A DNA stretch of 64,000 bases from the sequence record OZ035789.1; one strand, written 5' to 3'. Below the pieces are notes generated by a model. That model ran no database searches, had not been told where the DNA came from, and saw only the letters and a list, made by a program, of their open reading frames with translations. This stretch comes from Tequatrovirus BCH953P4. This document shows positions 13,333 through 59,200 of the stretch, in pieces. A program made the position numbers and the translations under genes. Position 1 is the first letter of the stretch, and every line of letters begins with the position of its first letter.

Positions 13333-14751
13333 TTATGGATAGGTATAGATGATACCAGTTTCTAAAGCAGTTTTATGAATGATGTATCCATTACGCGATT
13401 CTTGGACATCAACTTCTGGATAGTCTTTCATCATCTTCTGAAGAGTGTAACGATGCAGGTAGTATTTACTATCTGGATCTTCAGTTTTCCAATCTTTACC
13501 TTCTTCAGTCATTTTTTGGATTTCATCCATAACCCACCAACCGCACCAGATGTAAGCTGAGCTACGGTGTGGAAGAGGATGAACATAAGGTAATTCACCT
13601 TCTGGTTCTGGAGCAACTTTATCAGTTACCTGAACTTGACCTTCCGCCGTAATAGTTTTGCTATCATAATCAGCAGCAGTAACAGTTGCAGTAACTTCAA
13701 TAGTTTGACTTCCAATAGATGAGGTATCAACTGTATATACATTAGTTGATCCTTCTACAGGAGAAGAATCTTTCTTCCATGAATATTCAATTTGCGCTTC
13801 TTCTGGAGCATCAGTGACATTAGCAGTAAATGTAGCCGAAGCATCTTGCTGAACGTTAATAGAAGGAGGAGTCAATGTAACCTGTGGATTCATTGTCTTC
13901 TTATTAACCGTTAATGATACTTCATTAGAAGTAACTGTTTTTGCGTCATAATCTGTTGCTGTTACTTGGGCTACGCATTTAATTCTTTTTACTCCACTTG
14001 TAGTTGGAGTATAGCTAAATGTAGAGTTAGTTTCTCCACCAACTTGTGAATCATCTACATACCACTGATACGTAGCAGATGCTCCATCAGGTTGAGAAGC
14101 TAAGGCAGCAGTAAATTGAACTGGGGTTCCGATAACTCCCGCTGAAGGACTATCGGGAGTTACTGCTAAGGTAGTTGTCTGTGTCTTTTTATTAACAGTC
14201 AGCGACACTTCATTAGAAGTAACTTCTTTTGCATCATAATCTGTCGCGGTTACTTGAGCCACACACTTAATTGTTTTAACTCCGCTTGTGGTAGGAGTGT
14301 AATTGAATGTAGCAGAAGTTGCTTCGCCCACAGGAGAACCGTCAACGTGCCATTGATACGTAGCAGATGCACCTGGTGGCTGCGAAGCTAAGGCAGCGGT
14401 AAATTCAACAGCTGTTCCAATCACTCCAGCAGCAGGACTATCAGGAGTTACTGCCAAGGTAGTTGTCTGAGTTTTATTTTGAACTGTGATAGTAGTTGAC
14501 GCTTGAGCTGTTTCAGCTTCAGTATCAGGAACTGGATTTGTTGCAACTACCTTAATAGTCTTTTGACCGGCAGGACCTTTTAGTACATAACTAAAAGTTG
14601 CAGACGTTTCTTCCTGTGGTGCATCATCAACAGTCCAAGCATATGTAATAGGTCCATCTCCAGTTTGACCACTGGGTGTGGCAGTAAACTGCTGAGTCTG
14701 ATCTATAACTCCAGTAGGTGTTTTAGGAGTTATATCAACTGTAAAAGCCAT
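13333..14751 (-). CDS. hoc: Highly immunogenic outer capsid protein Hoc, with an extra Ig-like domain
   Basis: 472 aa vs 376 aa remembered for T4; N- and C-terminal regions match T4 Hoc; internal ~96-aa domain present twice. Confidence 0.9.
   Translation of the reverse strand: MAFTVDITPKTPTGVIDQTQQFTATPSGQTGDGPITYAWTVDDAPQEETSATFSYVLKGPAGQKTIKVVATNPVPDTEAETAQASTTITVQNKTQTTTLAVTPDSPAAGVIGTAVEFTAALASQPPGASATYQWHVDGSPVGEATSATFNYTPTTSGVKTIKCVAQVTATDYDAKEVTSNEVSLTVNKKTQTTTLAVTPDSPSAGVIGTPVQFTAALASQPDGASATYQWYVDDSQVGGETNSTFSYTPTTSGVKRIKCVAQVTATDYDAKTVTSNEVSLTVNKKTMNPQVTLTPPSINVQQDASATFTANVTDAPEEAQIEYSWKKDSSPVEGSTNVYTVDTSSIGSQTIEVTATVTAADYDSKTITAEGQVQVTDKVAPEPEGELPYVHPLPHRSSAYIWCGWWVMDEIQKMTEEGKDWKTEDPDSKYYLHRYTLQKMMKDYPEVDVQESRNGYIIHKTALETGIIYTYP
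13891..14178. repeat. hoc internal tandem direct repeat, copy B (approx.)
   Basis: ~288 bp unit encoding one Ig-like domain (TLAVTPDSP...SLTVNKKT), ~85% identical to adjacent copy. Confidence 0.8.
14179..14466. repeat. hoc internal tandem direct repeat, copy A (approx.)
   Basis: second copy of the ~288 bp Ig-domain unit, in frame. Confidence 0.8.
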
Positions 14752-17315: not shown

Positions 17316-17483
17316 CTATAGCAAAAGTTGTGTTTCATTTAATTGTTCTTCCGAACTTTCTGAAACTGGTAGTTCTTTAATGTAATTATAGCAAGGCCCA
17401 GGATGTACAGGACCTTTGTCTGTTTCAACAACCAATGCAGAATCGATTGGAGTTTTACAGACAACACAAATCTTATCTGACAT
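17316..17483 (-). CDS. Small Cys-rich ORF (55 aa, not in the ORF track)
   Basis: ATG-initiated MSDKICVVCKTP...HPGPCYNY with CxxC...C pattern; coordinates approximate. Confidence 0.4.
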   Translation of the reverse strand: MSDKICVVCKTPIDSALVVETDKGPVHPGPCYNYIKELPVSESSEEQLNETQLLL

Positions 17484-25530: not shown

Positions 25531-25534
25531 CAAT

Positions 25535-25552
25535 GGGGACCTTTCGGTCCCC
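25535..25552. terminator. Bidirectional hairpin GGGGACC-TTTC-GGTCCCC
   Basis: perfect 7-bp GC stem with tetraloop and flanking T-run, between gene 54 (+) and minus-strand operon. Confidence 0.6.
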
Positions 25553-25558
25553 ATATTT

Positions 25559-25849
25559 TTATTTACGGAATGAAATAAAAGCAGCAACTGAAGCAACTAA
25601 ACTGTCTTCAATATAAACCTCAATTTTTACCGGAGCTTCTGACTCAAATTTACCTGTTACTACACCTTGGAAAATACTTTCAGTCTGTTCTGGCTTTGAA
25701 AAATTTTCAGAAGGAAAAATTCCGAACTTTTTATCTGTTCCAAAAATTTTGATAAATTCATCGTAAACTGCTTCATTAAAAGCATTATCAGCAGGAATAA
25801 CGCCTTCAACTACAAGTTCTTGACCTAAAAAGCGCAAAGAAGATTTCAT
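25559..25849 (-). CDS. Hypothetical protein (T4 alt.-3 position)
   Basis: 96 aa ORF; preceded by the repeated promoter/hairpin cassette. Confidence 0.65.
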   Translation of the reverse strand: MKSSLRFLGQELVVEGVIPADNAFNEAVYDEFIKIFGTDKKFGIFPSENFSKPEQTESIFQGVVTGKFESEAPVKIEVYIEDSLVASVAAFISFRK

Positions 25850-25854
25850 TTTGT

Positions 25855-25910
25855 GTTCCTCATGTTATGTCAGTAAGATTACTATAACACAACACGAGGG
25901 ACTTGTAAAC
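25855..25910 (-). promoter_or_regulatory. Repeated promoter/hairpin cassette, copy 1
   Basis: coding strand GTTTAC-N17-TATAGT with 13-bp inverted repeat whose 3' arm contains the GAGG Shine-Dalgarno; 50/53 identical to copy at 41657..41712. Confidence 0.55.
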
Positions 25911-27967
25911 TACATTTTGAACTTTTTAGACATTCCGTTGATGTTAACCAAAGAAGCTAAGATTTGAGAAACTTCGTTTTCCTCTTCTTTTGATTCTTCT
26001 ACAAGGAATTGATTAAATCCAGTCATTGGACGAACTTCACCAGTTTCCATCAAATGATCGCCATCATATACTGATTCCTCTAATTGTTCAGAAGGAGGAA
26101 CGATTGTACCTTCGATTAGATACTTGTTATAAGCAGTTTCTTTCATAAAGTACGTACTTACTTTATTAATCTTCAGTAAAATTCCACGCGGTAGAATAAC
26201 TTCAGCTTCTGATGGAAATCCTGTTAAATGACCTGGAACGATAACTTTGATTCGCTCAGCTCCTTTAATTACCATACCCACGCTAGTTTCAGCATTTTCA
26301 TTAGCGTATGTAGAATGACTACCCATATGCATCAAATCTTCTGCATCAACGGAACCTTCTCCTTCACCAGAAAATACTGCGCCGGAATCATCTAGAGCCA
26401 TATAGTTTTTACCATGCTCACCGAAGATATTTGGTTTAAGCGATGTAGATACGAAGTTCTTGAAATAGAACATTTTGTTTTCAATGTTATGACGCAAAGT
26501 TTTAAAGGTAACTTCTTGTCCACGGTAAAGTGTAGTTCCTGGAGGAAGAACTGAACCTTTAGCGAATGCAGAATCCAACGTCTCGATATGCTTAATAGCA
26601 CGTTCCATATATTCTTCGCGGGTAGAATCAGGTTTACCCAAAAGGAATGAGTTCATTTCAACATATGAATCTGCACAATAATCTTCAATTACATCAGATT
26701 CAGCTTGAGTTAATCCTTTTGGAGTTACTTCAGTACTTGCATATTCATATGCCTGGGTAGCAGATTCATTAATCAATTTATAAATGCCATTCATTACAAA
26801 TTGAATAATAGCTGTCTTTTCATCTGGCGTAGCTTTAGAACCTTTAACCAAATCATTGATAATTTTCTTAATAACATCAAAGCTGTTAGAAATATTAATA
26901 TCAGCAAGATCGCTTAAAATTTTATCAGTTTTATAATCAAAGAATTCTTTATTTTTTAAATATTCTTGAGAACCTTGATACGATATATCGCTCTGCAACT
27001 TGATGGATGGATCACGTAAACGTGCATGGGCTAATGCAATATGATTTCGGAAGTTTTCTAGTTCATAATCGTTAGATTTAAAACGAGAAGCACTTCTCAT
27101 ACCACCGATAGCTCCTTTGCTGAAGTTTGAACCAATCTGAATAACGCCAGAGTTCATTGGTCCTTCTGCTTTATATACCGGAACTTTAGATTCAAACTCT
27201 TGATATTTCTTGGCAGCGAAGCTATCACCCTGAAGTGAAGCATCAACAGTAGAATATTGAGCTTGTGCTGCTAATCGACGACTAATTTTAGTTTTCTGAA
27301 TAACAGCTTGATCCGTGCGCTTATCATTTTCTAAAGCAATAGAAGCAGCAACAGCGACAGCTTTAGGAACAGCATTTCCTGTTTTAACGTCTACATAAAC
27401 ATCACCAACCTTTGATTCAACTTTTGTGAATAACTCAGTTGAAATAGGAGGTACACCTGGAATGTCTTCTAAATTGGCATTTTTACGGTAAACCATAATA
27501 TATGCATACTTTTTATCATAGTCCCAGATTTCCTTTAAAAGAACATATCGACCTGCTCCTTTGGTACGTACTAAACGGTCAGCAATAACTTGCATTTGAC
27601 GAGCAGCGCCATTTGTTTTACTCTTTAGTACACGGAATAAGCACGCGTCAATTTTATACTGCTTCATTGTTTGAAGAGCAGTATCAAAAACAGCATTAAT
27701 GACGCCAATTGGATTTCCACCCAAGTTTCTAAGCTTAACCAGTGATAATTTCTCGTTGACACCTATCATTACGATATGCATCATTTTATCGCCCGGCTTA
27801 ACGTTTTTATTTGTATCACCACCGGAGGTGTATGTACAAAATCTAAATCCAGGAAGCACGCTTTCTTCGCCGGCTTGAATAGCAAAAATTTGAGGTATTT
27901 TATGCTTAGGATTTAAGTTAACAACCGGCGCCGAAGCGCCGTCAAATAATTCTGTAATAAGTTCCAT
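25910..27967 (-). CDS. Alt-like ADP-ribosyltransferase paralog (full length)
   Basis: 685 aa; N-terminus MELITELFD...NLNPK.KIPQIF and R-S-ExE motifs (YRGQ, FVSTSL, EAEV) shared with Alt; divergent middle. Confidence 0.8.
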   Translation of the reverse strand: MELITELFDGASAPVVNLNPKHKIPQIFAIQAGEESVLPGFRFCTYTSGGDTNKNVKPGDKMMHIVMIGVNEKLSLVKLRNLGGNPIGVINAVFDTALQTMKQYKIDACLFRVLKSKTNGAARQMQVIADRLVRTKGAGRYVLLKEIWDYDKKYAYIMVYRKNANLEDIPGVPPISTELFTKVESKVGDVYVDVKTGNAVPKAVAVAASIALENDKRTDQAVIQKTKISRRLAAQAQYSTVDASLQGDSFAAKKYQEFESKVPVYKAEGPMNSGVIQIGSNFSKGAIGGMRSASRFKSNDYELENFRNHIALAHARLRDPSIKLQSDISYQGSQEYLKNKEFFDYKTDKILSDLADINISNSFDVIKKIINDLVKGSKATPDEKTAIIQFVMNGIYKLINESATQAYEYASTEVTPKGLTQAESDVIEDYCADSYVEMNSFLLGKPDSTREEYMERAIKHIETLDSAFAKGSVLPPGTTLYRGQEVTFKTLRHNIENKMFYFKNFVSTSLKPNIFGEHGKNYMALDDSGAVFSGEGEGSVDAEDLMHMGSHSTYANENAETSVGMVIKGAERIKVIVPGHLTGFPSEAEVILPRGILLKINKVSTYFMKETAYNKYLIEGTIVPPSEQLEESVYDGDHLMETGEVRPMTGFNQFLVEESKEEENEVSQILASLVNINGMSKKFKM

Positions 27968-27970
27968 GAT

Positions 27971-30019
27971 TTATCCTTGAACGAACTTGTAAGGCATGTT
28001 TGTAATATCTATGCAAGACGCAATAATTCCAAGAGATGATTCTACTTTCTGTTTAACATTTGATGAAACAAATGATGCAAAGTCAACTCTATCTTCTATA
28101 TCACCTGTCATTGTAACCAATTCACCAGTTTCCATTAAATGGTCTCCGTCATAGATTACCGATTCGGTGAGTTCTTCTGTGGTCATAACTTCAGCTTGAA
28201 TAAGCTTGTTGTTAGTTTTAACTGTTCCATCATTGTAAGATGCATCGGTTATTTTATTAACTTTGACCATTAATCCACGTGGCAAAATGACTTCCATTTC
28301 ATTTGAAGGCGCTAAACTTCCACCGGGTAAAACAACATTGACCTTATCAGCCCCAGTAATAACCCATCCAATTCCAACTAAATTATCGCTAGAATTTACT
28401 AGTCCTTCATCAGTTTTATCAATAGAAACACTTAGACGCTTTTCGTCTGGTAAAACACCTATAGATGAATCAGTCATCCAAGTACCAAAAATATTTGGAT
28501 ATAATGATGTTGACACAAAGTTTCTAAAATAAAAAACTCGATTTTTTACCATTGCTTCATATATTGAAGGTAACATTCGTTGTGAACGATACAAAGTAAT
28601 ACCTTTTGGTAATCGTTCACCATTTTTAAAGGCTGAATCTAAATTATCAATGGCTTGTTCTATTTCAGGTGCTGTTAAAATACTTGTACGCTCATCTGGA
28701 TTATATAATCCCAAAAGAGCATTATTCATGTCTACGTATCCTGAACCTACATATTCACGAATTCCGCGTTTTTGCGCTGGTGTGTATTTAGATGAATCTT
28801 TATTTTCGACTATAGGATGTAATGACCATCCAGCGGTAAGAGCATATCCACGTAATTCTCTTCGAATAATCTTTGTTTTTATTGCATTCCAAGAATTTTG
28901 TACTAACTCATTTGCAGCATCTTGGTTTAAATGCGAATGTTTGTTAATATTTCTTTCAAACCAAGCACCTTTATATTTTTCTAAAGTATCATCGACGATA
29001 GAAGCAATAGTTTCTAAAGTTTTTATTGAAGTAATAGATTCTTTTCGTAATTTTTCTAAAGCTTTATTTTTTATTTCTGCATTAATAATGGATTCTTTAT
29101 CTTCAGGAATTATAGAAGCTTCTCTGAATGCCATCCCAGCTGTAATACTGCTAAGAGCATTCTCTAGTGCAAATCCTGAAGTAGAAATTACCGTTAATTC
29201 ATTAGAATCAGAAATTAAAGGCGCGTCCGCTGGTTTATTTAATTCTGCCGCTGAAGCCTCAAATTTTTGAAACATCGGTGTTTCAAATCTAGAAGATTCC
29301 AATGACTGACTTTGTGCAATTGCTCTACGGGAAATTTTAACTTTAACGATTACAGCTTGGTCAGAACGTTTATCATTTTCTTGTGCAATAGATGCTGCAA
29401 TTGCCTCATTTTTAGTTACTTGAGCTCCAGTATCTTTATTGATATAAACATCACCGACCTTCGATTCAACTTTAGTAAAGAGCTCGGTACTAATTTCCGG
29501 AACTCCTGGAATGTCTTCTAGTGATACATTTTTGCGATGTATAAGAATATATGCATACTTTTTATCGTAATCCCAGAGTTCCTTAAGAAGGACGTATCTG
29601 CCACCTGAACGACTACGGATAAGTCTATCAGCAATAACTTGAATTTGTCGAGCTTGACCAGCGGTTTTAGACTTAAGAATACGAAGCATACAAGCATCAA
29701 TTTTATACTGGCGCATTGTTTGCATTGCAACAGTAAAAACTGAATTGATATAATTAATTGGGCTTGGACCAAGACCTTTTAATTTAGCAATTGAACCTTT
29801 AGCAGTTAATGTAAAAGGAACAATATGCATCATTTTATCGCCCATCTTTAAATCGCGATTAGTATCACCTCCAGATGTATAGGTGCATAAACGAAAGCCT
29901 GGTTGTTCAATTGCATCATCAACATGAACTGAAAAAATTTGCGGTATTTTCTTCTTTGGATTTAAGTTTGTAATCGGAAGAGTAGTATCTTCGTCAAATA
30001 ATTCTGTAATAAGTTCCAT
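27971..30019 (-). CDS. alt: Alt ADP-ribosyltransferase
   Basis: 682 aa from second Met; matches T4 Alt as remembered; motifs YRSQ, FVSTSL, EMEV. Confidence 0.9.
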   Translation of the reverse strand: MELITELFDEDTTLPITNLNPKKKIPQIFSVHVDDAIEQPGFRLCTYTSGGDTNRDLKMGDKMMHIVPFTLTAKGSIAKLKGLGPSPINYINSVFTVAMQTMRQYKIDACMLRILKSKTAGQARQIQVIADRLIRSRSGGRYVLLKELWDYDKKYAYILIHRKNVSLEDIPGVPEISTELFTKVESKVGDVYINKDTGAQVTKNEAIAASIAQENDKRSDQAVIVKVKISRRAIAQSQSLESSRFETPMFQKFEASAAELNKPADAPLISDSNELTVISTSGFALENALSSITAGMAFREASIIPEDKESIINAEIKNKALEKLRKESITSIKTLETIASIVDDTLEKYKGAWFERNINKHSHLNQDAANELVQNSWNAIKTKIIRRELRGYALTAGWSLHPIVENKDSSKYTPAQKRGIREYVGSGYVDMNNALLGLYNPDERTSILTAPEIEQAIDNLDSAFKNGERLPKGITLYRSQRMLPSIYEAMVKNRVFYFRNFVSTSLYPNIFGTWMTDSSIGVLPDEKRLSVSIDKTDEGLVNSSDNLVGIGWVITGADKVNVVLPGGSLAPSNEMEVILPRGLMVKVNKITDASYNDGTVKTNNKLIQAEVMTTEELTESVIYDGDHLMETGELVTMTGDIEDRVDFASFVSSNVKQKVESSLGIIASCIDITNMPYKFVQG

Positions 30020-30042
30020 CATAGCCTCTCTAGTGTTTATTC

Positions 30043-30050
30043 TATTTATA
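30043..30050 (-). promoter_or_regulatory. Late promoter TATAAATA for alt
   Basis: minus-strand TATAAATA ~22 nt upstream of alt ATG. Confidence 0.6.
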
Positions 30051-32825: not shown

Positions 32826-33286
32826 AGAGAGTCTCTTAATAGGTTTAACACATCAATAAATTCAGCTTCGGTTAATATTGTATCATCTTTTGTTAGACCA
32901 CTAGCCATGCTGTGCTTCAAAACTTTTCCTTTTGAGGCTTGTAAGGCATCACGAAACCCCTTGTTTTGAATCGCTGCTTCAAAATATGCATTTGTGTATA
33001 ATTCTTTCCACGCCGGGGAATATCTTGAAAACGGAACTCCAATCCAGAAGAGGGTCCCACGGTCCTGAGCTCTAGCATAAGACCTTCCAGCTTGTTGGGC
33101 GGCAAGCCCGGATAACCCAAATATACGACGTTGTTGTTCAACATTTTTCACCTTACACCCTTGGAGGAATCCTTCAAGACCTCCAAATTGAATACCATCC
33201 ATAACGAAAGGCCATTGGGCGAAATTACTTAATGCACATGATGGCCACCTAAAATTGCTTCTAATCTCTAACTCAGACATTTTCAA
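32822..33286 (-). CDS. NADAR/YbiA-like (DUF1768) domain protein
   Basis: 154 aa; SNFAQWPFVMDGIQF...EGFLQGCK resembles YbiA motif SNF..WP..DG...E..FQ..K. Confidence 0.55.
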   Translation of the reverse strand: MKMSELEIRSNFRWPSCALSNFAQWPFVMDGIQFGGLEGFLQGCKVKNVEQQRRIFGLSGLAAQQAGRSYARAQDRGTLFWIGVPFSRYSPAWKELYTNAYFEAAIQNKGFRDALQASKGKVLKHSMASGLTKDDTILTEAEFIDVLNLLRDSL

Positions 33287-34767: not shown

Positions 34768-34854
34768 TTTATTCTCCTTTGTTTGTGTAAGATAATACTA
34801 TCACAAAGGAACCGTACTGTAAACAACTTTGTGCAATCTTTGGAAAATAAAAAA

Positions 34855-34872
34855 GGACTCCCGAAGGAGTCC
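34855..34872 (-). terminator. Hairpin GGACTCC-CGAA-GGAGTCC with T-run
   Basis: perfect 7-bp stem and tetraloop, followed on minus strand by TTTTTTATTTT. Confidence 0.65.
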
Positions 34873-34877
34873 TTAAC

Positions 34878-40807: not shown

Positions 40808-41157
40808 TTAGAAAGGTCCTGGATGTCTTCTGCGAACTTGTTGAAGGAGTTGTTGATTTGTTTTTCAACCAATCCTGGCTTATGAGCCACCACATCCGCC
40901 TTCTTTGCGTCTTTGCGCAGCTTTTCATTTTCACGCTCAATTGCAGCAATTGATTCACGATTTTTATTATTCATTGCATCAATATAATTATATTGATTTT
41001 TTAAATCATTTAATGCTAAGGCGTTTTCATTGGCCGTTTTTGTAATTTCTACAACAGACGTTTCTAATCTTTCAATTTTATTTTTTAAAATTAAAGAAGT
41101 TCCGCCCAATGCAATTACAATTAATAACAAGCCTGCTGTCGTATTACTTACATGCAT
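40804..41157 (-). CDS. Putative i-spanin
   Basis: 117 aa; N-terminal transmembrane helix AGLLLIVIALGGTSLIL followed by coiled-coil-like region. Confidence 0.7.
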   Translation of the reverse strand: MHVSNTTAGLLLIVIALGGTSLILKNKIERLETSVVEITKTANENALALNDLKNQYNYIDAMNNKNRESIAAIERENEKLRKDAKKADVVAHKPGLVEKQINNSFNKFAEDIQDLSK

Positions 41158-41654
41158 AAAGTTTTAATAACCTCTATAATATCGTCTTGAGAAAGACCGT
41201 TAATTAAAATATGATGTTCAGCCGGAGATTTAGAAATTTTAAAGCATGCCTCAACATCTTCTGCCATATCCGATGCACTACGATTTGGATTACTAATTCC
41301 AAGACGATGCTTTCCCGTCAAAGGATTAACGATGATATAGCATTTACAGCTATTGATATGAACATTAGGTTGAGTCTGATTAATGAACACTTCGCAATCA
41401 TACTTAGCGAGTTGATTTTCTAAAAAGACTTTCATCTCCTCAACCGCATCAGGAAGCATATCACGGGCTTGCTCAAGACGACGATTTCGATATTCTTTAA
41501 TGGTCGTTTTCCGCTTAACTTGCTTAGCTAAATCTTTCTTAAGATCGGTGATATATCCAACTCGACGATTTCCTTTGAATACAGAAATCCCATCTGTAGT
41601 ATCACCGTATGCTTCAACGACCATTTCAGTAGTAATAAGCTGTAAATCCATCAT
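41148..41654 (-). CDS. alc: Putative Alc (inhibitor of host transcription)
   Basis: 168 aa; position between spanin pair and rnlA as in T4. Confidence 0.6.
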   Translation of the reverse strand: MMDLQLITTEMVVEAYGDTTDGISVFKGNRRVGYITDLKKDLAKQVKRKTTIKEYRNRRLEQARDMLPDAVEEMKVFLENQLAKYDCEVFINQTQPNVHINSCKCYIIVNPLTGKHRLGISNPNRSASDMAEDVEACFKISKSPAEHHILINGLSQDDIIEVIKTLCM

Positions 41655-41656
41655 AA

Positions 41657-41712
41657 AGTCCTCATGTTATGTCAGTAAGACTACTGTAACACAACATGAG
41701 GGACTTGTAAAC
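41657..41712 (-). promoter_or_regulatory. Repeated promoter/hairpin cassette, copy 2
   Basis: GTTTAC motif plus 13-bp inverted repeat covering GAGG RBS of alc; near-identical to 25855..25910. Confidence 0.55.
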
Positions 41713-41715
41713 AGC

Positions 41716-43303
<1,588 letters not shown>

Positions 43304-43330
43304 AATAAAATGGGCCTTGCGGCCCACTCC

Positions 43331-56279: not shown

Positions 56280-59200
56280 ATGGCCGAGATTAAAAGAAAG
56301 TTCAGAGCAGAAGATGGTCTGGACGCAGGTGGTGATAAAATAATCAACGTAGCTTTAGCTGATCGTACCGTAGGAACTGACGGTGTTAACGTTGATTACT
56401 TAATTCAAGAAAACACAGTTCAACAATATGATCCAACTCGTGGATATTTAAAAGATTTTGTAATCATTTATGATAACCGCTTTTGGGCTGCTATAAATGA
56501 TATTCCAAAACCAGCAGGAGCTTTTAATAGCGGACGCTGGAGAGCATTACGTACCGATGCTAACTGGATTACGGTTTCATCTGGTTCATATCAATTAAAA
56601 TCCGGTGAAGCAATTTCGGTTAATACTGCAGCTGGAAATGACATCACGTTTACTTTACCATCTTCTCCAATTGACGGTGATACTATCGTTCTCCAAGACA
56701 TTGGAGGAAAACCTGGAGTTAATCAAGTTTTAATTGTAGCTCCAGTGCAAAGTATTGTAAACTTCAGAGGTGAACAGGTACGTTCAGTACTAATGACTCA
56801 TCCAAAGTCACAGTTAGTTTTAATTTTTAGTAATCGTCTGTGGCAAATGTATGTAGCTGATTATAGTAGAGAAGCTGTAGTTGTAACACCAGCGAATACT
56901 TATCAAGCGCAATCTAATGATTTTATCGTGCGTAGATTTACTTCTGCTGCACCGATAAATATTAAACTTCCAAGATTTGCTAATCATGGCGATATTATTA
57001 ATTTCGTCGATTTGGATAAATTAAATCCGCTTTATCATACAATTGTTACTACATACGATGAAACGACTTCAGTACAAGAAGTTGGAACTCATTCCATTGA
57101 AGGCCGTACATCAATTGACGGTTTCTTGATGTTTGATGATAATGAGAAATTGTGGAGATTGTTTGACGGGGATAGTAAAGCACGTTTACGTATCATAACA
57201 ACTAATTCAAACATTCGTCCAAATGAAGAAGTTATGGTATTTGGTGCGAATAATGGAACAACTCAGACAATTGAGCTTAAGCTTCCAACTAATATTTCTG
57301 TTGGTGATACTGTTAAAATTTCCATGAATTACATGAGAAAAGGACAAACAGTTAAAATCAAAGCTGCTGATGAAGATAAAATTGCTTCTTCAGTTCAATT
57401 GCTGCAATTCCCAAAACGCTCAGAATATCCGCCTGAAGCTGAGTGGGTTACAGTCCAAGAATTAGTTTTTAATGGTGAAACTAATTATGTTCCAGTTTTA
57501 GAGCTTGCTTATATAGAAGATTCTGATGGAAAATACTGGGTTGTACAGCAAAACGTTCCAACCGTAGAAAGAGTAGATTCTTTAAATGATTCTACTAGAG
57601 CAAGATTAGGCGTAATTGCTTTAGCTACACAAGCTCAAGCTAATGTCGATTTAGAAAATTCTCCACAAAAAGAATTAGCAATTACTCCAGAAACGTTAGC
57701 TAATCGCACTGCTACTGAAACTCGCAGAGGTATTGCAAGAATAGCAACTACTGCTCAAGTGAATCAGAACACCACATTCTCTTTTGCAGATGACCTTATC
57801 ATTACTCCTAAAAAGCTGAATGAAAGAACTGCTACAGAAACTCGTAGAGGTGTCGCAGAAATTGCTACGCAGCAAGAAACTAATACAGGTACTGATGATA
57901 CTACAATCATTACTCCTAAAAAGCTTCAAGCTCGTCAAGGTTCTGAATCATTATCTGGTATTGTAACTTTTGTATCTACTGCAGGTGCTACTCCAGCTTC
58001 TAGCCGTGAATTAAATGGTACGAATGTTTATAATAAAAACACTAATAATTTAGTTGTTTCACCTAAAGCTTTGGATCAGTATAAAGCTACGCCTACTCAA
58101 CAGGGTGCAGTAATTTTAGCAGTTGAAAGTGAAGTAATTGCTGGACAAAGTCAGCAAGGATGGGCAAATGCTGTTGTAACGCCAGAAACGTTACATAAAA
58201 AGACATCAACTGATGGAAGAATTGGTTTAATTGAAATTGCTACGCAAAGTGAAGTTAATACAGGAACTGATTATACTCGTGCAGTCACTCCTAAAACTTT
58301 AAATGACCGTAGAGCAACTGAAAGTTTAAGTGGTATAGCTGAAATTGCTACACAAGTTGAATTCGACGCAGGCGTCGACGATACTCGTATCTCTACACCA
58401 TTAAAAATTAAAACCAGATTTAATAGTACTGATCGTACTTCTGTTGTTGCTCTATCTGGATTAGTTGAATCAGGAACTCTCTGGGACCATTATACCCTTA
58501 ATATTCTTGAAGCAAATGAGACACAGCGTGGTACACTTCGTGTGGCTACACAAGTTGAAGCTGCTGCAGGAAAATTAGATAATGTTTTAATAACTCCTAA
58601 AAAGCTTTTAGGTACTAAATCTACCGAATCGCAAGAGGGTGTTATTAAAGTTGCAACTCAGTCTGAAGCTGTGGCTGGAACGTCAGCAAATACTGCTATA
58701 TCTCCAAAAAATTTAAAATGGATTGTGCAGAGTGAACCTTCTTGGAGAGCAACTACTGCGATAAGAGGTTTTGTTAAAACTTCATCTGGTTCAATTACAT
58801 TCGTTGGTAATGATACCGTCGGTTCTACCCAAGATTTAGAACTTTATGAGAAAAATAATTATGCAGTATCACCATATGAATTAAACCGTGTATTAGCAAA
58901 TTATTTGCCATTAAAAGCAAAAGCTGCTGATACAAATTTATTGGATGGTCTAGATTCATCTCAGTTCATTCGTAGGGATATTGCACAGACGGTTAATGGT
59001 TCACTAACCTTAACCCAACAAACGAATCTGAGTGCCCCTCTTGTATCATCTAGTACTGCTACGTTTGGTGGTTCAGTTTCGGTAAATACATTAACTATTT
59101 CTAAAACTGGAACAGCAGCTCGTCTGATTTTTGAGAAAGGACCTCAAACTGAAACTAACCCAGCGCAGACGATGACTATCAAAGTTTGGGGAAACCAGTT

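Follow-up and report, generated by a model that had tools for sequence, protein, structure and literature searches.

We analysed a 64,000-nt stretch of the genome of Tequatrovirus BCH953P4 (OZ035789.1), hereafter the window, which carries two nearly identical copies of a short intergenic cassette on its minus strand, 15.8 kb apart. Copy 1 precedes alt.-3 and follows an alt-like gene, and copy 2 precedes alc and follows rnlA (table 1). The neighbours of copy 2 are conserved genes, while copy 1 adjoins a plastic spot, where the alt-like gene is full-length here and represented only by remnants in T4. The window is that of a Tequatrovirus, and both regions share 97-99% identity with RB32, RB33, teqhal and hundreds of other T4-like coliphages.

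The initial annotation of this DNA described a 53-mer recurring at 41660..41712 with three mismatches, as part of a duplicated, sequence-conserved module. Matching the 53-mer to the minus strand of the window placed it at 25858-25910 with no mismatch and at 41660-41712 with three, and none of 100 dinucleotide-preserving shuffles matched it. A repeat search recovered the same pair as a 54-nt unit (25857-25910 and 41659-41712, minus strand, 94% identical, family D10), which bears out both the recurrence and the module, a near-identical unit with three mismatches where none would be expected by chance. The unit begins at 25857 or 25858, so that the start first given, 25855, was off by 2-3 nt. On the minus strand the identity of the copies extends from the G of GTTTAC through GAGGA, and the flanks on either side are unrelated. 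The two-copy 54-nt repeat is therefore real and non-random. A search for further copies, also proposed at the outset, was run with blastn against 50,697 phage records and gave 995 places spread over 498 records, two to a genome and in T4-like phages only. T4 itself carries both copies, which differ by one base. No further near-identical cassette was found at a new locus in these 498 records; G28 (L109, MG867727) is the single genome with three cassettes, the third being due to a local tandem duplication of the cassette together with the 5' part of alc.

Table 1. Cassette copies, their parts and related features in the window (positions counted from the first letter of the window).
Feature	Position	Strand	Remarks
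Cassette copy 1, 54-nt unit from -35 to Shine-Dalgarno sequence (SD)	25857..25910	-	between alt-like stop codon and alt.-3
Copy 1 -35, GTTTACA	25904..25910	-	G doubles as last base of the alt-like TAG stop
Copy 1 5' arm, lower stem, CCUCGUGUUGUGUU	25886..25899	-	inside promoter spacer
Copy 1 extended -10, TGT-TATAGT	25881..25889	-	top of 5' arm, bulge and upper stem
Copy 1 predicted start	25874	-	A of CTTAC, 7 nt past -10; from promoter geometry; in T4 (AF158101) about 123,057
Copy 1 3' arm, lower stem, GACAUAACAUGAGG	25858..25871	-	last 4 nt (25858-25861) are the GAGG SD of alt.-3
Cassette copy 2, 54-nt unit	41659..41712	-	between rnlA stop codon and alc
Copy 2 -35, GTTTACA	41706..41712	-	3 nt after the rnlA TAA stop
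Copy 2 5' arm, lower stem, CCUCAUGUUGUGU	41689..41701	-	in long RNA, stem extends outward by AGUCC/GGACU
Copy 2 extended -10, TGT-TACAGT	41683..41691	-	
Copy 2 predicted start	41676	-	A of CTTAC; from promoter geometry; in T4 (AF158101) about 136,300
Copy 2 3' arm, lower stem, ACAUAACAUGAGG	41660..41672	-	41660-41663 are the GAGG SD of alc
alt.-3, 96 aa, DUF5498	25559..25849	-	served by copy 1
alt-like ADP-ribosyltransferase paralogue, full-length, PF03496	25910..27967	-	upstream of copy 1
alc, inhibitor of host transcription	41148..41654	-	served by copy 2
rnlA (gene 63), RNA ligase 1 and tail-fibre attachment	41716..42876	-	upstream of copy 2
Late-promoter motif TATAAATA	30043..30050	-	just upstream of alt; likely source of late read-through to copy 1
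Gene 30.8 early promoter, third, non-identical member	34775..34824	-	spacer UUCCUUUGU pairs with SD-containing ACAAAGGAG
Bidirectional intrinsic-terminator-like hairpin, perfect 9 bp, GC-rich	25533..25554	both	between convergent gene 54 and alt.-3; closes the alt.-3 unit

Both copies score as T4-type early promoters, in agreement with the early -35-like GTTTAC noted at the outset: each combines GTTTACA, a 17-bp spacer and a TGn extended -10 with TAYAGT (scored as TTTACA-N17-TA(T/C)AGT). They share GTTTACA, the 17-bp spacer, TGn, TAnnnT and a CTTAC near the start with the T4 early promoters, which are of the UP/-35/TGn/-10 type (Hinton 2010, PMC2988021). The early consensus alone, however, brings cassettes to only 64-80% identity and leaves unexplained both the 94-100% identity seen here and the 13-14 bp of complementarity between spacer and SD region. 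The late-promoter motif TATAAATA is absent from both cassettes, and in the public record of phage fPS-65 the site of copy 1 bears the annotation 'predicted early promoter'. In a T4 omics time course (PMC9697503 supplements), alc and alt.-3 are early as RNA and as protein, rnlA is early as RNA and late as protein, and alt.-1 and alt.-2 are middle RNAs.

RNA that spans a whole cassette folds into a long hairpin. It had been described as a 13-bp inverted repeat with the -10 in its loop and the GAGG SD in its 3' arm. The inverted repeat is there, but the stem is longer: a lower stem of 13-14 bp, in which CCUCRUGUUGUGU(U) pairs with (G)ACAUAACAUGAGG, is followed by a 2-nt bulge, an upper stem of 4-5 bp and a 4-nt loop. 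The -10 does lie inside the hairpin, although in the 5'-side bulge and upper stem and not in a simple loop, and GAGG forms the final four nucleotides of the 3' arm, as claimed. It stands 8 nt from the alt.-3 ATG and 5 or 8 nt from the two ATGs of alc. The fold energies, -20.8 kcal/mol for copy 1 (z = -7.0) and -22.5 kcal/mol for copy 2 (z = -5.8), were not reached by any of 200 shuffles, while leaders begun at the own promoter folded no better than shuffles.

Sequestration of the ribosome-binding site in read-through RNA, and its release in promoter-initiated RNA, had likewise been predicted, and folding and opening costs support it. In RNA begun 100 nt upstream, opening the SD costs 11.3 kcal/mol at copy 1 and 8.0 kcal/mol at copy 2, compared with 2.2 and 1.4 kcal/mol in RNA begun at the own promoter; the predicted probability that the SD is unpaired in read-through RNA is 0.001-0.003. 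The alc cassettes of five other genera behave alike (5.2-13.7 kcal/mol in read-through and 0.7-2.3 kcal/mol in own-promoter RNA). Since the -10 sits above the 5' arm, a start about 7 nt downstream of it would fall in the loop or 3' arm, and the resulting RNA would lack the whole 5' arm. An intrinsic (Rho-independent) terminator was considered at both sites and found no support in the sequence: the terminator scan listed neither cassette, and the stems continue into AACACAAAAUG and ACUUUAUGAUG without a U-run. No Rfam family matched anywhere in the window at gathering score.

We propose that each cassette acts as an early-only translation gate, with the logic of T4 e, soc and I-TevI built around an early promoter, and we put the probability of this reading at roughly 60%. 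As DNA, each copy would act as a strong early promoter of the sigma-70 class. Once transcribed, the promoter spacer would supply one arm (5') and the SD region the other (3') of a hairpin with about 18 bp. A polymerase arriving from upstream would transcribe both arms, coming at copy 1 from alt and the alt-like gene, including the late promoter of alt, and at copy 2 from nrd, denA and rnlA. The hairpin on such read-through RNA would hide GAGG and leave the alt.-3 and alc cistrons silent. RNA begun at the cassette's own promoter, about 7 nt past the -10, would lack the 5' arm, have an open leader and be translated. Because early promoters stay active for no more than minutes, the downstream gene would be translated in the early period alone. 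Read-through is expected because the upstream genes stop 0-3 nt before the -35, no terminator-like site intervenes and a late-promoter motif precedes alt. Alt is a packaged virion protein and hence presumably made late. Further upstream of rnlA, the middle promoters PI-TevIII and PnrdB are known in T4. The T4 timing data fit a device that limits downstream translation to the immediate-early period while the upstream gene is still expressed. The reading is in essence that of the initial annotation, and sequence analysis supports each part of it that computation can address: the repeat, the promoter match, the hairpin stability, the predicted SD occlusion and the conservation with covariation. 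The start sites, the read-through RNA and the block to translation are predictions.

The alc upstream regions of other genera were obtained via the Alc protein. The rnlA-alc spacer, from GTTTAC to ATG, is nearly constant at 58-64 nt. One order of parts, in which GTTTACA is directly followed by the 5' arm, the loop holds the -10 and the 3' arm finishes with GGAG or GAGG, is found in Tequatrovirus, Gelderlandvirus, Karamvirus, Jiaodavirus, Dhakavirus, Bragavirus, EcS1-like phages, Erwinia phage Cronus and locus L045. The arms themselves vary by lineage, for example UCUCCAUUUGGUU pairing with AACCAAAUGGAGA, UCCUCAUCAG with CUGAUGAGGA and CCUCUCGUUUUUG with CAAAAACGAGAGG. Gaprivervirus has an extra open reading frame (ORF) inserted in the rnlA-alc region.

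Nine collinear sequences were aligned with MAFFT, which is blind to structure (alignment A3). Across the 13 pairs, 96.6% were formed, compared with 90.1 +/- 1.3% in column shuffles (0/500 as high); four pairs had changed on both sides, one of them occurring as G-C, C-G and U-A. The covariation score was 0.235 against 0.104 (0/500), and partners slid out of register paired in just 32-52%. An alignment fitted to a model, with 31 distinct sense-strand cassettes, gave 96% paired cells against 68 +/- 1.6% in shuffles (0/1000), and double-sided changes in all 13 pairs, where shuffles averaged 7.5 and reached at most 11. The model-fitted alignment leans towards structure, so the MAFFT result is the more conservative of the two. 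Two further alignments were kept out of the pair counts: a MAFFT alignment of all 27 hairpin-bearing cassettes (A2), in which lineages fell in different registers, and a model-search alignment (A4), whose antisense hits mirror the same helices and would have been counted double. A covariance model built from genera other than that of T4 gave, as its best hits in the window, copy 2 (22.9 bits), copy 1 (21.2 bits) and the gene 30.8 promoter (20.8 bits). Because the hairpin geometry is kept upstream of alc with compensating arms in at least nine genus-level lineages, the alc-upstream hairpin is, on this comparative evidence, under selection in these lineages. We regard its conservation across genera through compensatory change as the strongest new evidence.

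In Acinetobacter phage 133 (L110), a distant relative, an 8-bp SD-sequestering hairpin (AGUCCUCA with UGAGGACU) lies upstream of alc. Its 5' arm abuts a TATAGT -10, giving the same logic in compact form.

Within the T4 type, 24 copies contained ten distinct substitutions, and the inner 12 pairs of the lower stem were never broken, small as these numbers are. Three substitutions fall in the loop or bulge and five keep or improve pairing (G.U to A-U, U.G to U-A, C-G to U.G, a new basal U-A); of the remaining two, one opens the terminal pair and the other, while weakening the upper stem, creates a consensus TATAAT. Across the 24 copies no position tells the alc locus from the alt.-3 locus, and both have the same modal sequence. 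A scan of IMG/VR with GTTTACAAGT-N39-GAGGA, intended as an unbiased source of T4-type variants, was abandoned since it returned mostly chance matches and a handful of true copies.

The distribution of the cassette also points to its origin. Another early-promoter cassette stands before alt.-3 in Gaprivervirus, Dhakavirus, Karamvirus, Marfavirus and a Mosigvirus-like phage; its spacer holds a mini-hairpin of 4-6 bp with an AAGGA-type loop (ATGGAT in the Mosigvirus-like phage), and its SD is free. The hairpin cassette is widespread at alc and found at alt.-3 in Tequatrovirus only, and the T4-type cassette is clearly related to the alc cassette of Dhakavirus (CCUCAUGAUGUG...AACAUGAGGAG). This combination suggests that the alt.-3 copy derives from the alc cassette. 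Most likely it was taken from there in the Tequatrovirus ancestor, with boundaries at motifs common to all early cassettes; no rearrangement junction was seen. The two loci may also still exchange sequence. All three cassettes of G28 (32846-32898, 33197-33249 and 17331-17383) are identical and share TATAAT and AATC, which among the copies fetched otherwise occur at alt.-3 loci only. Together with the lack of any locus-fixed difference, this suggests occasional gene conversion between the alc and alt.-3 cassettes. The Mosigvirus-like alc cassette is 78% identical to alt.-3-type cassettes and 64-70% identical to alc-type cassettes, which is a weak hint that it is of the alt.-3 type, the reverse of Tequatrovirus, given that background identity already amounts to 64-80%. 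In Mosigvirus-like phages (L009 and L053, phage NHEP10; L036) the alc cassette has no SD hairpin, and its spacer carries the mini-hairpin ACACC-AAGGAA-GGTGT.

A third cassette of the same design but unrelated sequence serves gene 30.8, where opening the SD costs 8.3 kcal/mol in read-through and 0.2 kcal/mol in own-promoter RNA. We examined eight strong T4-type early promoters. Those of alt.-3, alc and 30.8 cost at least 8 kcal/mol in read-through compared with at most 2.2 kcal/mol in own-promoter RNA, while the remaining five cost at most 4.8 kcal/mol in read-through RNA; three of these five (30.7, 38405 and 51365) nonetheless have an inverted repeat straddling the -10. The spacer-SD hairpin design is therefore wider than the duplicated cassette, yet not universal. 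At the promoters at about 34431, 38405 and 51365 (minus strand), inverted repeats of 10-13 bp place the 5' arm in the spacer and the 3' arm at -10/+1, with the SD free. A strong intrinsic terminator at 34853-34874 (minus strand) lies just upstream of the 30.8 promoter, the layout of the promoter-early stem-loop (PeSL) cassettes of PST/T4.

PeSL cassettes have been described in T4-type phages (Arbiol et al. 2010, PMC2839356; Comeau et al. 2014, PMC4122927), a link absent from the initial annotation. Ours resemble them as repeated intergenic modules in which a sigma-70-type early promoter and a stem-loop lead up to the SD and start codon of a following gene. Both copies match the subclass of phi1/RB49 PeSLs in which the stem-loop often lies between -35 and -10 or over the -10, and both fit the PST/T4 PeSL consensus TTTACW-N17-TAYWAT. 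PeSLs have been proposed to recombine with one another, and here the alt.-3 copy appears to be alc-derived and the copies appear still to homogenise. There are differences, too. In the PeSL papers the stem-loop figures as a terminator or attenuator and as a recombination site, and sequestration of a ribosome site is never mentioned. In PST/T4 PeSLs the stem-loop stands just upstream of the promoter, whereas in our cassettes the -10 is enclosed by the stem, the SD serves as the 3' arm and no U-tract follows. PeSLs lie preferentially next to ORFans in hyperplastic regions; these cassettes flank conserved genes, although copy 1 adjoins a plastic spot. Formally, the element is of the PeSL type in a broad sense.

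The closest functional relatives are the T4 hairpins that hide a ribosome-binding site and contain a late promoter, those of e, soc, 49 and I-TevI and also I-TevII, I-TevIII, mobE and segB (PMC3014915). As in e, soc, 49 and I-TevI, the DNA for the 5' part of the hairpin contains a promoter; here, by prediction, the long RNA would hide the SD or AUG, and RNA from the internal promoter would lack the 5' arm and be translated. Unlike in those genes, the promoter is an early sigma-70 promoter (GTTTACA...TATAGT) and not the late TATAAATA, so that the gate would open early and close later, and a single genome holds two almost exact copies of the cassette. The examples in the 2010 review of T4 post-transcriptional control all have late promoters, and alc, alt.-3 or any early-promoter case is not among them (PMC3014915). 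The element thus works like the e/soc/49/I-TevI family without strictly being a member, its promoter being early. The comparison made in the initial annotation is apt as to the logic, while promoter class, and with it timing, are the reverse. A hairpin at alc or alt.-3 was mentioned nowhere in the literature we searched; older T4 literature lay outside that search and may hold such a mention.

Several points weigh against an early-only gate. Our literature search returned no mapped 5' ends, toeprints, translation data or named early promoters for either site, and the existence and amount of read-through RNA at both are inferred. The Mosigvirus-like alc cassette has just a mini-hairpin in the spacer and a free SD, and in Tegunavirus, Providencia phage PSTCR6 and locus L038 a hairpin forms around the -10 with the SD likewise free. 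Lineages without SD sequestration suggest that SD occlusion may not be what the hairpin serves for ancestrally or in general. Comparing sense with antisense stability as a test of an RNA-level role was uninformative across the family, the sense hairpin being the more stable in 16/33. In the T4 type the sense RNA is more stable by 4-9 kcal/mol, due to two G.U pairs; this asymmetry leaves a sense-strand RNA role unproven and favours it for the T4 type alone. Lastly, Arbiol et al. read the promoter-embedded stem-loops of RB49 and phi1 as terminators or attenuators, and one stem-loop cut lacZ output like a strong terminator.

This published reading, with its reporter experiment, speaks for PeSL-type terminators, attenuators or RNA-end elements, which would stop or attenuate transcription arriving from upstream or protect the 3' end of the processed upstream mRNA, the overlap with the SD being secondary. 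Hairpins around the -10 without the SD, in several lineages and at several other early promoters of the window, would suit such a role. However, a translational block would have given the same drop in the reporter, and no lineage has a U-tract after the stem, the SD-to-ATG spacer being A-rich instead and the terminator scan silent. In at least nine lineages, moreover, the SD forms the exact end of the 3' arm, and the two arms covary. We therefore consider this explanation unlikely, while ranking it ahead of the other alternatives. Translational coupling, in which the SD stays closed unless a ribosome on alt-like or rnlA opens the hairpin, draws on the position of the upstream stops, 0-3 nt before the -35 and just 10-11 nt from the stem base. 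Classical coupling hairpins have a similar stop-to-stem layout. A terminating ribosome would be expected to unwind about 5-9 nt downstream, though, and so would not, or barely, reach an 18-bp stem 10-11 nt away, which makes coupling less likely; that the rnlA protein of T4 is late and Alc early also argues against it. Overall, coupling seems improbable to us.

We consider it about equally improbable that the element works as DNA, as an operator or cruciform on the early promoter or as a recombination substrate in PeSL shuffling, with the RNA hairpin as a by-product. In favour of such an element are the roughly equal stability of sense and antisense hairpins family-wide, the ends of the duplicated unit, which are motifs common to all early cassettes (GTTTAC, GAGGA), the identity of the three G28 cassettes with their alt.-3-typical variants, the lack of a fixed difference between loci and the alt.-3-type cassette at Mosigvirus-like alc. 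Yet what is kept between genera is arm complementarity and inclusion of the SD and not arm sequence, unlike in an operator, and in the T4 type the two G.U pairs favour the sense RNA. Recombination accounts for the origin of the copy but not for pairing maintained in at least nine lineages. Least probable by far is chance or a purely historical duplicate, that is, two similar strong promoters with a function in initiation only. It can call on the extended consensus of T4 early promoters, which already makes unrelated cassettes 64-80% identical, but is disfavoured by 94-100% identity across 54 nt, including non-consensus spacer and leader, by hairpin z-scores of -6 to -7 and by the cross-genus covariation.

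An early-only gate thus remains our preferred reading. A wider picture, which we advance tentatively and at somewhat less than even odds, is that these are ancient and undescribed early-only gates whose promoter spacer doubles as the anti-SD arm, so that the cistron would be translated from its own immediate-early transcript only and stay silent on the abundant middle and late read-through RNA. Compensatory evolution would have conserved them at alc in most genera of enterobacterial Tevenvirinae, Acinetobacter phage 133 having a variant, and they would form a movable unit from -35 to SD that passed from alc to alt.-3 in Tequatrovirus and in reverse in Mosigvirus-like phages, homogenised by gene conversion.

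Some further features of the window deserve mention. The hairpin annotated in phage fPS-65 as a terminator on both strands matches the one that closes the alt.-3 unit at 25533-25554. The genes alt (27971-30022, minus strand) and alt-like (25910-27967, minus strand) stand in tandem with about 70% nucleotide identity (families D2 and D3); in T4 just the remnants alt.-1 and alt.-2 are left, and their reading frame extends into the cassette. Directly upstream of rnlA lies an ORF for a GIY-YIG (seg-like) homing endonuclease (42893-43327, minus strand), and a middle-promoter-like motif, ATGCTTCC ... TGGTACTAT (42880-42915, minus strand), follows this ORF just before the rnlA start. Elsewhere, 13894-14469 consists of two tandem 288-nt units that are 79% identical (family D1), and 57684-58606 holds short diverged direct repeats (D4, D6 and D11) spaced 108-375 nt apart, probably a repetitive protein-coding region.

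The hiding principle and the ordinary promoters are known; what would be worth an experiment is the reversed timing, the deep conservation at alc and a probably transplanted cassette that may still exchange sequence. T4 is a reference system for temporal gene control, and its known hairpins that hide ribosome-binding sites all delay translation to the late period. Early-only gates, if real, would explain how production of early proteins such as Alc is halted despite transcription from upstream middle and late promoters, and would give PeSL stem-loops a post-transcriptional role beside or instead of termination. The exact promoter-to-SD duplication, with its signs of exchange, suggests that a single 54-nt piece can carry regulatory timing from one gene to another, which would be relevant to phage genome evolution and may offer a compact part for synthetic biology.

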